Assembly (NCBI RefSeq): GCF_006345805.1
Contig: NC_042997.1
Coordinates: 163,432,001 to 163,496,000, forward strand
Length of the DNA: 64,000 bases
Origin: Octopus sinensis
Taxonomy: Eukaryota
Reading direction: 5' to 3'
Every line of letters begins with the position of its first letter. Within the stretch, counting starts at the first letter, position 1. Below the pieces are notes generated by a model. That model was given only the letters and a program-made list of their open reading frames with translations. It was not told the DNA's origin and ran no database searches. The position numbers and the translations under genes were made by a program. Below, in pieces: positions 2,342-12,327 of the stretch.

Positions 2342-3159
2342 AGGAAATTATAAGAATTTTCTTATCGGTATAATTTTGCGTCTTACGTTTAGTTTTGTTA
2401 TAACCCACTCATTTGAAATATATCAAGGAAAAAAAAAAAAAACTTTAACATTGGAATGAAGCATGGAGCCAAATAAGCTGATAGAAAAACATTATTTGTG
2501 TATGGAGACAAGATTGTATTTGAGAAACACTAAGTCCACCTTTTTCTATTAATGCTGTAAATAACAAAAACTTTAGATTTGTGGTGTTTCAGAAAATAAC
2601 AGGTGGAGGTCATGCTTTTGTCAATGGATTTATGTATGGTATTGAATGAATGGAGATACTCTAAAGATTGTAAAAATATGAAATGAAAGGAGATGAAAAA
2701 GAGTGTGAACATCACAACAGAAAAGGAAAACGGGTTAGCTAAACGGTACGAGAGGAAATAAAGATAGAAATTAAAGGGAGAAAGAGTTGACACATAAGTT
2801 GTTGTAAAACCACTTTAAAGGACAGTTCATAAAAAAAACATTAAAAATGAAAAGGAGAAAACTAACTGTAGAGAACCAAGAAATATATGAAAAGAAACCC
2901 AGGACGCAATGTAATTAAACACACTGAATGGCCTCTGCACATTAAGAATACTATCCTTAGAATAAACAAAAAGAAAAGAAAAAACGAACGGGTTTATTAT
3001 CAAGCCCAAAGTTGTGTCTAAAACTCATTCTCTACTATTCACATAACCAGGTTTTAGAAAATAATTGGAGTCTATCGAAAACATAAAAAGAATTTCATTT
3101 TATCTACAACTTGTTGTTACCTATGAATTAAAGCATTAATAAAACGTTCTGATAATAAT

Positions 3160-3683
3160 AATTTTTTCTAACTGCGGCACAAGGCCAGCAATTTTAGGAG
3201 GAGGTATCAGTTATATCGACTTCCAGTACTTGACTGGTACTTTATTTTATTGACATTAAATGATGAAAGGCAAAGTTTTCCTTTGAACTAAGAACGTAAA
3301 GAGCCGGAAGAAAAGCCATTGAGCATTTTGTTTCATGCACCAACAATTCTGTCAGCTCGCGCTCTGATAATATGATAATTTATGTATCATTTTAGATTAA
3401 TTAGTGCGTTAACAATGTTTTGTTTCAATATTACACTGCAGAATATATCTATAGATCTTAGCCACCAACACTAATTATTCTAGAAGAACAAGGCCTGAAA
3501 TTTTGAAGGTGGGGTTACTCGGTTACATCATTTCCCCATGCTCAACTGATGCTTATTTTCTCGACTTTGAAAGGAATGAAAGGCAAAGCTGATCTCGACA
3601 TTTGAACTCAGACCGTAAAACTGGAAAAAGTGCTGTTAAGCATTTTAGCCAAGATAGTAAAGATTCCTTTAGCTCACTGCCTT
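3160..3683 (-). mobile_element. Two degenerate family-A SINE copies (~3160-3362 and ~3480-3683)
   Basis: GATGAAAGGCAAAG...TTTGAACTCAGA...AAGCATTTT...AGCTCACTGCCTT blocks. Confidence 0.7.
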
Positions 3684-4296
3684 AACGCTGTATGGAATAA
3701 TAGATGTAAACACCGTCTTTGTATGCAGTATCTCTCATTGTACAGGGGAAAAGGGGTGGGAGGAATCATACTAATTAGTTCCAATCTTGTCTTAGGATTT
3801 CATTAACAACCGAGTGCTCTCTTTATTATTTAAACCTTTACTTATCACAGACTACAAATAAAATATTACTAATTGTATGGATTCCAAATCTTTAAATAAT
3901 TTCCTTTAAAAACAAAAGAAATGTATCAGTGAAAAGGGTTGGTGGGGGGAAAGAGGTCATCAGTTTGATTTAATATCTTGTTTGTTAAATTGATTTTCAA
4001 AAATGCCCCACCCTCCCCCAACATGCACACAAACACATATTACGTAAATCACCACTTAATACGCTTGACAGCATTGAAAAATATTGATCATCATATCTAA
4101 TTATAGTATTTTGTTACTTTCTGAGTGCCAAAATATCTTCTTACTGGAGAAAAAACTTAAGTGATTGGATTTTTAAAATGTATTTTGCACTTTTTATCAA
4201 ACTCTTAAGGTACTTAAGAGATTCATTTGATTTCTCTTACATTTCAGAAATCTTCATAAATGTATTTCACAAACGCTCAAAATGTTCTACTTACAG

Positions 4297-4579
4297 GGTA
4301 CTACTTAGGAAGAGTGGTCCCGGTGCGCGCACTCGCGTACTCAGGCATCCGCGCTAGCTAGTCGTGACTAGTCTATCTTTACTTTGTGTTTTTGTTACAT
4401 TTACTTTGTTTTTTAAAAATTAATTACTTTTTGTTTTTGTGTTTTATTTACTTTGTGTAAAACATGATTTATTTTGTGTTTTATTTACTTTGCTAGGTAG
4501 TCGTAGGATCGACTAGTCACGACTAGCTAGCGCGGATGCACGAGTGCGCGCACCGGGACCACTCTTTTTAAGTAGTACC
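4297..4579. mobile_element. MITE with ~75-bp GC-rich TIRs and 9-bp TSD (Mutator-like)
   Basis: TIR GGTACTACTTA..AAGAGTGGTCCCGGTGCGCGCACTCG..GCATCCGCGCTAGCTAGTCGTGACTAGTC mirrored at the right end; flanks TACTTACAG (4288-4296) and TACTTATAG (4580-4588). Confidence 0.8.
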
Positions 4580-5251
4580 TACTTATAGAATTCATATTAC
4601 GTATTTAACAATATAAGATTAAAGGAAAAAAAGGCGCGATTGTAAACGTCTTGAACTTTTAATCGCTTGTAGAATATAGTAACAAAGAAACAGAAGGTGT
4701 TGGGTATGAAAGCAATAAAAGCCATATGCTATCAGCAGGTAAGATAAGTGGGAATGTTAGTTTGCCGCCAATTTTGGATCTAACGAAATGGAGAGTCGGT
4801 TGTTGCTAACATGTATTAGTTAATTTGACAGCTGCAAGATGTTTCAGTATTTATTCTGTTACAGTTTGCATAGTAAGGAGCTTCTCTTAGCATTTCACTC
4901 AAACGAATATCTCCCACAACTGCGAAGCAATTAAAGTATCTCAAAGCATAACATTTCTTACTGGCGTATACCTTGCAAGTTCAAATAGAAAATCTCCCTC
5001 CAATCAAACTCTACAGATTTGATAATGTAGTCACTACTTCGTACCCCTACAAAAAGTCAGAATTGTCATGGCTGGAATGTATTTGATCTTAGACCTGCTC
5101 GATCAATGCTAAACAATAACAACTCAAAGCAAATGAAGGAATATCTACGTGGTCGTTTTACTTTTTAACTTCCAAGTCAAACCTGATCAACCAAGCATTC
5201 GACCAAAGGCGTTCAAACCACGGCCACCTCATTTTCCATATATCCTCTGTG

Positions 5252-5623
5252 TGAAAAGTTTGGCTGCATACACGTTAGCATATGTCAGGTGCATACAATT
5301 GACAACACAGTTAATTAAGATTTATTCAGTGAGTTCTATTCAACACATGTTTACACGTGGAATCCATTAGATGAAGGCATTTTCAAAGTTTTGGCCGATA
5401 AAGTTGAACTGAAAAATCCTACAACGAGGCATGAATTGCACGAAGCCGTCTTGCAGTCTTGGGAAGAGCTATCTGAGCGGAAAATTCGTGGATGTATTCA
5501 ACATCAAACTCGTGTTCGGCGTCAAATAGTTGACTGTCGTGGTGGTAACAGATTCGTGTAATAAATTTTGTGTTTATTTTGTTTCATAATATATATTTTT
5601 TCGGATGCAGCCAGACTTTTCCA
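5252..5623 (+). mobile_element. Internally deleted Tc1/mariner-superfamily element retaining the transposase C-terminus
   Basis: 5358-5561 translates WNPLDEGIFKVLADKVELKNPTTRHELHEAVLQSWEELSERKIRGCIQHQTRVRRQIVDCRGGNRFV*, matching the (SPDL)NPLD...EL...W...R...GG pattern; inverted ends GAAAAGTTTGGCTGCATAC / GGATGCAGCCAGACTTTTC. Confidence 0.75.
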
Positions 5624-6810
5624 ATGTGTCTTTCACTGCGTTTTTAGAAGATCGAACAGCCACATAGAGAATCTTTCGTTAGCTAACCTAAGGCAGTACC
5701 CGCCCTGACTAGCCCTTCTTTTGGTATACCTAGGATAGCATATGTGTCTTTTTTTTTTTTAGATGGTATAGTGAGAACTGAAATAAATTTGGTCACTGTC
5801 TAGCAAATGTTTTGTTGGATGCACCTTTGTTTATCTGGTGAAAGTTGAACGATAAAATATGAAATCTTTCTTTGCAAAATAAAAAAGAAATATTTTTTTT
5901 TTGCTTATAGTTTTCATTATTGCTACTTGGGTCTACTAACTCACTAAACAAATACATGTATCTCTTTACATCAGCTGAACTAATGACACATGAATATCAA
6001 GGGAGCTCTATATCGTAGGGGTGGGTGGAGTCTTTAATTTTTTTTTTACAATTCTAGAGCTCCAAAGATTTGCTTGATATATTGCTAAAAACAGCAGCTA
6101 AATCACTCTTATTACACTATCATCTTACAAACTGACACGTTGAAAAATGTAATCCAGGGCACACTAAACCTGCAACCCCCCCCCAAAAAAAACGAACAAA
6201 AACAAAAAATGCGAAGGTATGGTTAGAGCTGGAATGCTTTTCACCATAGCAACCTAAGCCATTTTAAGATAGGTACAATGGGTGCTGTTGCATCATGATC
6301 CAGGATCTCAATGAATATAATTTCATCATACTCTTGGCACAAACCCAAACTAATATCACCAAGCTAAATCTATGCAGTCTTAACTTTGAACTCTTAGTTA
6401 CTTTCAAGTCTTGAGATATTTGCAATTGTTTCTGTATTGATTATATCCATGCAATTTTAGCTGTTTACAGCAAGAGGCCAGCTATTGAAACTTATATTGT
6501 TCTACCGTTTTGATTAATTCAATTGAGTAACTATAGTGTTCATCAACAGAATCTAACGCTTTCAATATCTCAATTGTATCTGCAACTTTTGTCTTTTATT
6601 CATTAACTGATCAGCTAATTAATTACATAGATTAGCACTCCACTACTGTGTCAGTCTGTTGTGGTGATAATGAAGTCTTTGAATTTTTTCTGGTTAGTTG
6701 TTACAATCACGTTTGTGTGTTGTTATGGTGTCCAAAGAATTAGCATCCCAGTATTTCAAACTACAAGAGCTTGTCTGAAAGGAGATTTGGTTGTGGTATT
6801 TGTAGAGAGC

Positions 6811-7633: not shown

Positions 7634-7666
<33 letters not shown>

Positions 7667-7674
<8 letters not shown>

Positions 7675-8065
7675 TATTGAGTCAAGTACATTAACATCAA
7701 CATCAAAATAAATATCAAATGGAAATTGTAGTTGTGATACCTGTGCCGGTGGCACGTAAAAAGCACCAACTGATCGTGGCTACTGCCAGCTTCCCCTGGT
7801 AGCTGTGCCGCTGGCACGTAAAAAGCAGCCACTACACTCATGGAGTGGTTGGTGTTAGGAAGGGCATCCAGCTGTAGAAACACTGCCAGATCAGACTGGA
7901 GCCTGGTGCAGCCTCCTGGCTTCCCAGACCCCGGTCGAACTGTCCAACCCGTACTAGCACAGAAAACGGATGTTAATGATGATGATGATGTGTGTGTGTG
8001 TGTTCAAATTTCACTGAGGTCGACTTTGCATTCATCCTTTCTGAGTATATATATATATATAATAT

Positions 8066-8113
<48 letters not shown>

Positions 8114-8485
8114 TATTGAGTCAAGTACATTAACATCAACATCAAAATAAATATCAAATGGAAATTGTAGTTGTGATACCTGTGCCGGTGGCACGTAAAA
8201 AGCACCAACTGATCGTGGCTACTGCCAGCTTCCCCTGGTAGCTGTGCCGCTGGCACGTAAAAAGCAGCCACTACACTCATGGAGTGGTTGGTGTTAGGAA
8301 GGGCATCCAGCTGTAGAAACACTGCCAGATCAGACTGGAGCCTGGTGCAGCCTCCTGGCTTCCCAGACCCCGGTCGAACTGTCCAACCCGTACTAGCACA
8401 GAAAACGGATGTTAAATGATGATGATGATGTGTGTGTGTGTGTTCAAATTTCACTGAGGTCGACTTTGCATTTCATCCTTTCTGA

Positions 8486-9087: not shown

Positions 9088-9389
9088 CTGAGAAAGTGAG
9101 AGAGAAAGAAAAAGGAAAGAAATAAAACCAGCATTTTCTATACAGTGTGTGCTTTTTATGTCTCAGTTAAAGATATAAAATGTTTGCCACATTTTTTTTG
9201 AGCTGAAAGAACTTGACAATTTTTTTTCTCTCTTTATGAATGACATGACAAACTCTTTGTATATAGCATATCAATAGGTTTAGAGTTAAACAAACTAGTG
9301 CAGGCATGGGAGCCCATTATATATGTATATAGGGAGATGTACTTGCATAGCAAGTGACCTGATCTGAGATCGTGTGCTGGAACGAAAAC

Positions 9390-9670
9390 AATTGCAGTGT
9401 GGAAAGTGTTTATAAGCCATTTAAGAAATACACAAAAAACATTAGATTCACTTCAACATTTAAATCTAATTTGCCAAAATATTTTCGTCACTTTGAGACC
9501 GTGATCTGTTCACTGACAAAATTTCGTGCAGCATGAAATTTTGTCAGTGAACAGGTTGCGGTCTCAAAGTGACGAAAATATTTTAGCAAATTAAATTTAA
9601 ATGTTGAAGTGAATCTAATGGTTTTTGTGTGTTTCTTAAATGGCTTATAAACACCTTCCGTGCTGCAATT
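9390..9670. mobile_element. Palindromic Penelope-like pLTR relic with a variant hammerhead motif in each arm
   Basis: Near-perfect ~138-bp arms around TGCAGCA (~9530); flanked by TA-rich tracts; TTGTCA-GTGAACA-G-stem-GAAA-ATATTT-T(G/A)GCAA in both arms. Confidence 0.7.
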
Positions 9671-9894
9671 ATATATATATGTATATTAGAGAGTAAAAGT
9701 AGGAAAAGTTATATCTTAAAAATCACAGTAGAGATAAGTCCATAATATACACAGTATTCTATAATAAATAAATAGATGAAGTACAACTATGATCATTAAA
9801 AATTTTTTTTAAGTTTTGAAAGTACTTACGATCGTTTCATGAATATACTACATCTCAAAATGAAATCTAAAGTTGATAACCATTATTGGAAAGT

Positions 9895-10386
9895 GGCCGC
9901 ATCAGGCCCAGTCTGATCTGGCAGTGTTTCTACGGCTGGATGCCCTTCCTAACGCCAACCACTCTGTGAGTGTAGTGGGTGCTTTTTACGTGCCACCCGC
10001 ACAGGTGCCAGACGGAGCTGGCAAACGGCCACGAACGGATGGTGCTTTTATGTGCCAGGCGAGGCTGGCAACGGACGTAAAAGCACCATCCGATCGTGTC
10101 CGTTGCCAGCCTCGCCTGGCCCCCGTGCTGGTGGCATGTAAAAGCACCGTCCGTTCGTGGCCGTTTGCCAGCTCCGTCTGGCACCTGTGCGGGTGACACG
10201 TAAAAAGCACCCACTACACTCACAGAGTGGTTGGCGTTAGGAAGGGCATCCAGCCGTAGAAACACTGCCAGATCAGACTGGGCCTGATGCGGCCTTCCAG
10301 CTTCACAGACCCCAGTTGAATCGTCCAACACATGCTAGCATGGAAAGCGGACGCTAAATGATGATGATGATGATGATGATGATGAT
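9895..10386 (+). mobile_element. RTE-derived 3' fragment with fold-back duplication, (GAT)n tail
   Basis: Same 3' end as the RTE at 45944-47312; 9895-10077 is an inverted copy of ~10098-10294. Confidence 0.85.
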
Positions 10387-12263
10387 ATCCACTAGTCAGA
10401 GAAAAGGATGAATTTCAGTGTAGTAAATTGAATGAAAGAAATGCTTTTTAAAATCAGATGAGAAAGGTGTTGTTTAAAAGAGAGAGAGAGAGAGAGAGAT
10501 AATCAAACATGTCCTTTGAAAACAAAGTGTACTGGATCTCAGATAAGTGCTCTTAGTATGAGAAATGTCTAAAACCTTAGAAGGTATTTAGAGATTCAAT
10601 TAAAGCGATTATAATTAGAGAGCATAAAATATAATAATGATATCTTCTAGTTTTATCTCTATAAATATAAAAGCAACAAGTAATCACTTTTACTTTCTTA
10701 CACTTAATGATTATACACTGAAGAGGAAATGAATTATGAGAATTCTATCAACACAGACATTACAGATTCTTACCACGGATTTTACCATGGATTTATTTTA
10801 TTTTTTCAAAAGTTTTAGCTCAAATTTATACCAACTCAGATTTATACAAATAACTTGTAAGAATTCACTTGAACTTCTAGAAATAACAACCAAATTACCA
10901 TCTTAAAACATGGTCCTATTCACACTCATCATTATCATGATCCTCATCATCATCATCATTTAATGTTCGTTTTCTATGCTGGCATGAGTTAGGAATTTGA
11001 CTGGAGCTGGCAAACCAGAGAGCTGCACTAGTCTCCAATCATCTGTTTTAACTTAGTTTATATGGTTGGATGCTCTTCCTAATGCCAATCATTTTACAGA
11101 GTGTACTTGGTGTCTTTTATGTGTCACCAGCACAGGGGTCTTGTACATGTCACTAGCATACGTGCCTTATACATGTCACCAGTGCAGGTTACAACCACAA
11201 TTTCACTTAGTTTGACATTCTCAAGCACAGCAAATTATCAGAAGTCTCAGTCACTTGTCATCACCTCTGTGAGACTCAACATCCAAAGATCATATTTTAC
11301 CACTTCATTCCACATCTTTCACAGGTTCCCTCCACAATTAGAGATCAGGACTTCTTTATGCGGCTGTCTTTGTCCATATGCATCACATGACCATATCAAT
11401 GCAATCTTCTCTCTTGCACTCATCTACTGCCTCTGATATCCAATTGTTCTCTTAGAACACTTACACTAAGTTTTAAAATAAAATGGGATGATCATAGCCA
11501 ATGTTCCTTGAATATACGTCTGCCTAATTGGAACTGTCCCAGAGCTAAATCAACATAGTAATAACAGCACCAAGTATTATAAAATTTCATAATGAAGTAT
11601 CCACAGCTTTTATTCTTTGACTTGTTTCAATCACTGAACTGCAGCTATGCTAGAGTAACCACATTAGAGGGTTTTAGTTGATCAATTTTCATTTTTCTAA
11701 CTGCTAAGTTACAAAAGCATACACAAACCAACACCAACTGTCAAACAGAAATAGATAAACACAAAACAAAAATGCATGCACACATGTATGCATACATATA
11801 TGTGAGAGAGAGAGAGAGAGAGTGTGTGTGTGTGTGTGTGTGTATACACATATGAAACTGCAGACGCCCAACCTCCTGTCCTTTAGATAATGACTGTCTC
11901 ACAAAAATCATTGTTTATAAATGTACAGTATCAACTGCCAACTGTAGCTACATATATACCCTGAACAACGCTAATAGCTTTCTGTGAATCGATTTTTTAT
12001 AAAACTTTTCCCAGCTGGTTTGCACATTATGGCAACACCATTATTTTGTTTTCATTATTCTGTGTAATGTCCTTTCTTTTTTATTTCAGATTCTTCGGTT
12101 TTTGGGTGAACCACGCTAATAGCTTCTGAATGAAAAATAGCCCATCTAGACATTTTTTTTTTCCAGAAAAATCTCTAAATACCTTCTAAGGTTTTAGACA
12201 TTTCTCATACTAAGAGCACTTATCTGAGATCCAGTACACTTTGTTTTCAAAGGACATGTTTGA

Positions 12264-12327
<64 letters not shown>

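Follow-up and report, generated by a model that had tools for sequence, protein, structure and literature searches.

A naturally swapped 3-8 pair in the hammerhead motif of an octopus Penelope-like element

The palindrome described here consists of two 5′ pieces from a Penelope-like element (PLE), inserted head to head and since decayed. It lies in a 64,000-nucleotide stretch of Octopus sinensis DNA (contig NC_042997.1), referred to below as the window. Each arm carries a motif that is almost certainly a homologous hammerhead whose 3-8 pair has been swapped, to G3-C8. Taken as a whole, the explanation we consider fairly probable is that this hammerhead was inherited from the parent element, in whose RNA it is likely to cut slowly, and that it is likely to be inactive in the window copy. 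Read from the families aligned below, the PLE clade uses all four Watson-Crick pairs at positions 3 and 8.

The window palindrome and its parent element

The arms of the palindrome (9390-9529 and 9531-9670) are 140 nt each and 91% complementary, with mismatches at 12 of 140 positions, in agreement with the 281-bp palindrome claimed in a first-pass annotation. Eleven of the 12 differences are transitions, several of them at CpG. The repeat unit is asymmetric: a 57-nt tail extends the minus-strand arm to 9333, giving a whole insertion of 9333-9670 with its long-ended arm on the minus strand and its short-ended arm on the plus strand, a layout common to many copies. The insertion is 85-87% identical to the pLTR end and ORF start of a full-length element, L096. 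The tail (9333-9389, minus strand) lies between two preferred 3′ ends, includes some of the first codons of the ORF and runs on into the ORF in L096. In all, the long arm encodes the first 29 codons of an L096-type ORF (9333-9420, minus strand, ATG at 9420), starting MAYKHFPHCN in the window and MAYKHLPRCN in the parent. At the mirror position of 9420, the plus-strand arm holds a second ORF start and first codons (9640-9670), ending at the short 3′ end. The arms meet at 9520-9540, close to the element's 5′ end, at a junction that varies from copy to copy and usually shows short inverted microhomologies. Target-site duplications of about 13 bp flank the insertion on the left (9318-9330, plus strand) and right (9674-9686, plus strand); they are TA-rich and lie within (TA)n-like DNA, a simple-sequence context because of which their exact length is uncertain. 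The locus itself is most likely an ordinary dead insertion.

Searching the octopus genome with the palindrome gave 4,002 candidates, and all 40 that were scored were 88-93% alike over the full length, the query itself apart. A pattern containing the core matched 7,970 times genome-wide (4 for a reversed control) and a pattern outside the core 8,198 times; in round terms, there are about 8,000 motif matches of the PLE family. The 7,970-versus-4 excess shows a repeat family, not function, and genome-wide counts with the core pattern, which fix the core letters by design, were left out of the conservation evidence. Copy structure was read from 99 arms, de-duplicated from the first 100 matches on contig C1 to a pattern anchored outside the core. 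Measured from the shared 5′ end, 3′ ends were bimodal, falling at 143-151 in 37 and at 201-209 in 51 of the 99 arms. Inverted arms numbered 59. A tail, about 60 nt long, extends each palindrome at one side, and no constant centre is shared by the copies. Flanking duplications were mostly 11-14 letters (one mismatch allowed), roughly 10-13 bp, at AT-rich sites; targets were TA runs in 15 of 53 rows and the duplication was absent in 3 of 53. Tails at one end, AT-rich or (TA)n targets and variable duplications, all found here, are traits of the PLE class. Direct-orientation neighbours on contig C1 were mostly local duplications or separate insertions, and one led to an endonuclease fragment. One insertion was found six times with the same junctions and flanks (L110, L117, L126, L155, L175, L181), carried inside another repeat or duplication.

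The first-pass annotation had proposed looking for a linked Penelope reverse transcriptase (RT)/GIY-YIG ORF, and a full parent with the order pLTR-hammerhead-ORF-pLTR was found. A longer copy led to an endonuclease-like fragment; of the 30 loci that matched this fragment best, 26 had the repeat unit at most 1.5 kb away. The full-length L096 consists of a partial pLTR, the motif (G3 at 2865), an ORF running from an ATG at 2957 to 6171 with one frameshift, and a second, downstream pLTR of about 1.2 kb, which contains a second motif and ends at the short site. The parent ATG is about 92 nt downstream of G3. In L087, a stop-to-stop frame spans 1042 aa. The pLTRs are direct in L096, and inverted units occur in L088, L092 and others. 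The ORF contains the RT motifs GSMDVVSLYP and YVDD, then a linker, CX3CxxC (CQSNCAVC), and a C-terminal GIVY..YIGET of GIY-YIG type. A linker of the form CX2-5CxxC before the endonuclease, which CQSNCAVC fits, is a Neptune/Nematis feature (PMC8557442). Pfam gave no match for the parent ORF and RVT_1 at E 0.004 for the sister protein; an RT structure matched at E 0.0007, and one homologue is annotated 'GIY-YIG domain-containing'. On these sequence features the parent is a PLE of the C-terminal endonuclease type, with weak profile support.

RT motifs A and B′ of the L087 ORF are separated by a long insertion, common to its relatives, which may mark an unnamed PLE subclade; canonical C-terminal-endonuclease PLEs are described as lacking an insertion in the fingers (PMC8557442). 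In the annotated octopus protein P0109, the first about 150 residues are sister PLE RT, fused to a leucine-rich-repeat gene model, and the fusion is probably a gene-model artefact. Other repeats lie close to the palindrome. A second head-to-head repeat (9895-10294) has 163-nt arms, 98% complementary with 74 nt between them; it is related to copies at 7784-7899 and 8223-8338, and we take it to resemble the 3′ ends of RTE-type LINEs. A 118-nt inverted pair (10479-10596 and 12170-12287; 100% complementary, 1.57 kb apart) faintly resembles the tail of the PLE (77% over 26 nt) and has no match to the parent PLE by blastn or tblastn. An identical 300-nt direct repeat (7637-7936 and 8076-8375, 439 nt apart) is either a recent tandem duplication or an assembly artefact.

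The hammerhead core and its covariation

The plus-strand motif (9540-9590) is a minimal type I hammerhead motif with a G3-C8 core. It has stem I at 9540-9546, G3 to A9 at 9547-9553, an extra G at 9554, stem II at 9555-9559 and 9569-9573, GAA at 9574-9576, helix III (AATATT) at 9577-9582, U17 at 9583 and stem I′ at 9584-9590, with a predicted cut between 9583 and 9584; it is decayed in stems I and II, and one stem I pair is broken. The minus-strand motif (9470-9520; G3 at 9513, predicted cut 9477/9476), also of minimal type I with a G3-C8 core, mirrors it by x → 19060 − x and is likewise decayed, with G10.1 mutated. Both motifs read as they had been described, and the proposal that GUGAACA is a G3/C8-swapped core was borne out, the swap being real and inherited in the parent family. 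A palindromic helix III had also been proposed; the palindrome stands but its extent, an 8-mer, does not, since the proper helix III is the 6-mer AATATT and the 8-mer takes in A14 and U17.

Among the features of minimal PLE hammerheads, U4, G5 and A6, A9, G12, A13 and A14, A15.1-U16.1 and H17 are all present. Young arms replace the literal C3 and G8 of CUGANGA, with G3 in all 68 and C8 in 66 of them, and the Watson-Crick 3-8 pair is retained as G-C in the octopus family. Stems I and II, G10.1-C11.1, the extra base at 9.1 and the palindromic helix III are intact in the parent and partly broken in the window copy. Compared by letters and predicted pairing, the octopus motif agrees with minimal PLE hammerheads in every feature tested except the literal C3/G8. 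CUGANGA patterns cannot match a GUGANCA core, as had been foreseen; the further idea of a non-canonical ribozyme family was not upheld, since the motif occupies the hammerhead position of its clade and varies only the core of a minimal PLE hammerhead already known. Rfam gave no hammerhead match at E up to 10 in the window region or the parent, and likewise none in the canonical relatives L192 and L204, which makes this negative uninformative; on the window region it returned only hairpin-like miRNA matches, below threshold.

Folding predictions separate the window copy from its parent. A strict hammerhead descriptor found no match in either window arm; the same descriptor matched the parent 230-nt unit and 0 of 3000 dinucleotide shuffles. 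The palindrome region is predicted to fold as a single 140-bp hairpin (−197.6 kcal/mol, z −26.9). Isolated window arms reach predicted hammerhead pair probabilities of at most 0.06, and their folding energy is no better than that of shuffles (z −0.54 to 0.35). The parent minimum-energy fold consists of stems I and II, with pair probabilities of 0.75-1.0. That a transcript of either strand would contain a ribozyme, as had been suggested, is therefore true of the sequence but not of the fold, given the hairpin and the isolated arms. The window copy is very probably inactive.

Retention of the core in both arms while the stems drifted had been put forward as evidence of selection. This argument is void: the arms are two copies of one template, and because they share descent their agreement is uninformative on selection. 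Conservation was instead assessed with an older subfamily, found with DNA downstream of the core (27 of 30 loci used, 3 young-like loci dropped). Between the old and young subfamilies none of the 14 core columns differs, compared to 23 of 84 columns downstream (binomial p 0.011; Fisher p 0.0096), as expected if GTGAACA/GAAA is conserved better than its flanks. Their commonest letters also differ at 0 of 14 positions in stem I, 1 of 8 in stem II (a CpG tie) and 6 of 8 in loop II, and N7 has changed. With 2 nt fewer in the old subfamily, helix III remains a palindrome there. A search for G3-C8 motifs in which helix III starts differently led to that subfamily; most of its 85 matches, versus 73 for a control, were background.

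In the sister family (58% amino acid identity), 38 of the 39 motif copies, which come from 30 loci, have the core CUGAUGC, with a C3-G8 pair and C9; stem II is compensated in this family. From metagenomes we found 47 relatives, 19 of which reach the C-terminal region, and these were scanned with a descriptor blind to positions 3-9. A hammerhead scaffold was present in 10 of the 19, with 3-8 Watson-Crick in 10 of 10 (C-G in four, U-A in five, A-U in one); no hammerhead motif was found in the other 9 of 19, whose 3′ flanks span 1-1019 nt. As the families are related, the ten pairs are not ten independent events. The A3-U8 case (L198, 2810-2840) lies behind a related PLE ORF, on a single contig and with a weak stem I. 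Old, low-copy U3-G8 or U3-A8 motifs in the octopus genome were not counted, being single decayed copies with no ORF nearby.

In an alignment of 12 families, 95.5% of cells pair, compared to 26-44% in slid controls. The 3-8 pair, in four types, and the innermost stem I pair are each formed in all 12 families; G10.1-C11.1 is invariant, stem I is 86% paired, and U4, A6, G12, A13, A14, A15.1 and U16.1 are invariant. Pairing in stem II and helix III is required by the descriptor, so only the 3-8 and stem I covariation is independent. Thus, the covariation that had been proposed as a check for stems I and II was found for stem I, and for stem II it carries no independent weight. In a tree with two inner forks open and L198 left out, the octopus family groups with the C3-G8 sister (100/100) and then with the U3-A8 relative L188 (91/95), and from this grouping G3-C8 looks derived.

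Relatives also depart from the standard core elsewhere. Position 9 is C, not A, in the sister family (L269, 2552-2590) and in L188 (2497-2535), and L195 has U5. These departures could reflect a relaxation of catalysis within the clade. In the sister family helix III is an imperfect palindrome.

Cleavage, insertion and rival explanations

The parent motif is likely to be a natural self-cutting variant, and we lean towards measurable cleavage in the parent context, in view of the conservation described above and of the partial rescue that C3G/G8C gives a PLE hammerhead (PMC11167929). Uncut RNA was the source of most genomic copies: of 99 arms sampled, 91 read through the predicted cut site. Genome-wide, an uncontrolled count gives only 54 matches that begin at the cut site and are preceded by two letters other than T, and stem I microhomology explains about 17 of these; by a hand estimate, such starts occur at most at about twice the background rate of the 99-arm sample. 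In PAc, the Poseidon element of Anolis, uncut RNA is the main template though the hammerhead cuts with its protein present (PMC11167929). Since uncut templates are also the rule there, read-through does not refute activity. Several observations count against cutting. G3 can wobble-pair with U17 (predicted probability 0.66), resembling the C3-G17 pair described as inhibitory in a hammerhead (PMC3884650), and the predicted energy of the helix III duplex is a mere −0.2 kcal/mol. A C3G/G8C change only partly rescues the PAc hammerhead, itself a PLE hammerhead (PMC11167929), and PLE minimal hammerheads are reported to cleave poorly in vitro (PMC4209133).

In the mechanism we propose, the element RNA would start about 15-17 nt upstream of stem I and be capped. 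The parent motif would cut slowly, as a dimer or with the element protein, the 6-nt palindromic helix III forming between two motifs and G3-C8 keeping the core geometry at reduced speed. The RT would start internally at two sites, one per nicked target strand, and copy RNA, for the most part uncut, as far as the cap; both cDNAs would then join at inverted microhomologies to leave a palindrome tailed at one end only. Two-site priming is a step that we judge moderately probable. Among 58 head-to-head rows, 48 paired a long with a short arm, 2 were short+short, none was long+long and 8 were unclassified; after removal of one tail-to-tail row and five duplicates of one insertion, long+short made up 42 of 44 classified pairs versus 22 expected. 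Such pairing is what priming at two RT start sites, each on its own target strand, would give, and in PAc both strands are extended. The PAc tail is the gap between two RT start sites (PMC11167929). A purine precedes the shared 5′ end in 1,075 matches, and in the first 100 it is G in 86, where the parent has C or T. Our reading of this extra 5′ G is a copied cap, and some of the extra G's are readable as junction microhomology. Cap-derived G occurs in retrocopies, and we take the 5′ end of the octopus PLE to be initiator-like.

What the motif is can be explained in two other ways. A MITE or foldback DNA element with a chance likeness to a hammerhead would account for a long, near-perfect inverted repeat in thousands of copies, often in TA runs. 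However, the ends are asymmetric where symmetric TIRs belong to such elements, duplications vary in length where theirs are fixed, the centre differs per copy and many arms are single (40 of 99 not scored as inverted). Above all, each arm derives from the 5′ end of an element that encodes an RT, and this parent refutes the idea, which we regard as extremely improbable. More weight, while still a clear minority view, goes to a hammerhead-descended fold, 3-8 pair included, that no longer cuts and has become a structural 5′ leader element with a role in protein binding, dimerisation or RT positioning. Such a loss of cutting would sit well with copies made mostly from uncut RNA, with the predicted G3-U17 pairing, with the core departures in relatives and with PAc insertion in vitro being unaffected by hammerhead mutants (PMC11167929). 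Yet the 3-8 pair, described as formed in the active conformation only (PMC3884650), has been kept through four pair types, and the seven single positions listed above are invariant across the 12 families. We continue to favour a motif that cuts slowly in the parent.

Two further rivals, both unlikely but slightly less so than a structural leader, concern how copies were made. Inverted copies might arise by snap-back of one cDNA with later arm flipping or conversion, which bears on the insertion mechanism only. Paired arms are nearly always of the same subfamily, some share private changes, and junctions lie at inverted microhomology, all of which snap-back would produce. But the short arm reaches further 5′ in 19 of the 48 long+short rows (14 of 42 after duplicate removal; the long arm does so in 15, with 14 ties), which is impossible by simple snap-back, and the short site at which the second arm stops is also where single copies end. 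The sharp 5′ boundary, for its part, might be a splice acceptor, in which case the extra G would close some short exon instead of copying a cap. At the boundary the parent shows a CTAAC that resembles a branch point, followed in our list by a pyrimidine tract and YAG, and PLE pLTR introns ending at helix I are known (PMC4209133). Bases upstream of the extra G vary between copies, though, and no pLTR donor leaving GAG was found by eye in the parent. Two-site priming back to a cap is the mechanism that we prefer.

Comparison with known systems

In the literature searched we found neither a natural G3-C8 hammerhead nor an octopus PLE hammerhead; Lunse et al. 2017, Przybilski & Hammann 2007 and the PMC4209133 supplement could already report the former. 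Natural U3-A8 and opposite-strand hammerhead pairs are already published. The G3/C8 swap is a classic laboratory rescue experiment. What may be added here is an active natural G3-C8 hammerhead, amplified about 8,000-fold, in a clade with all four 3-8 pairs, together with the use of both RT start sites per event; on sequence grounds we hold this combined claim tentatively, a little short of an even chance. If true, searches with CUGANGA and UUGANAA overlook a class of hammerheads in genomes, and the use of both start sites in one event explains why inverted PLE insertions have a tail at one end only. That a successful mobile element has the swap fixed, while its relatives have C-G, U-A and A-U, is evolutionary evidence for selection on the active-state 3-8 pair in PLE hammerheads. 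It also means that genomic hammerheads are undercounted by standard descriptors, and PLEs reported as hammerhead-free deserve a re-scan with 3-8 left free. For assays on the role of PLE hammerheads, the natural 3-8 variants give a ready series; the long+short rule and the extra 5′ G lead to testable predictions for PLE integration.

The closest systems are the minimal type I hammerheads of metazoan PLEs (Cervera & de la Pena 2014, PMC4209133), which like the octopus motif lie in the pLTR on the sense strand. Both have an extra nucleotide between 9 and 10.1, G10.1-C11.1, a short palindromic helix III and commonly U17, and in both the copies are mostly solo and truncated; opposite-strand hammerhead pairs 100-700 bp apart were already noted in that work. 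The octopus core, GUGANCA, differs from the 56 representatives in its Fig. S3, where G3 occurs in none and the covariant form is U3-A8, and at position 9.1 all 12 of our families have G where the consensus there is H. Natural core variants collected by Perreault et al. 2011 (PMC3088659) also include 3-8 covariation, limited in the part of that report available to us to U3-A8. Non-LTR retrozymes (bioRxiv 10.64898/2026.07.22.740005) are likewise non-coding, hammerhead-bearing and PLE-related, but they are tandem head-to-tail repeats, whereas the octopus palindrome joins 5′ fragments of a coding PLE head to head. We therefore rejected a retrozyme reading: the octopus copies are solo, head-to-head or attached to an ORF, and no master element of their own was seen. 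The tail is about 60 nt in octopus, compared to the 30-40 bp described for Penelope of D. virilis. PAc (Frangieh et al. 2024, PMC11167929) shares the hammerhead beside the ORF start, the AT-rich targets, the uncut RNA template and the two RT start sites, a short way downstream, that define the tail. The octopus ORF has a CX3CxxC linker of Neptune/Nematis type and starts downstream of the motif, while that of PAc starts inside it. Finally, PAc is C3-G8 and the swap there is a laboratory mutant, whereas the octopus element is naturally G3-C8.
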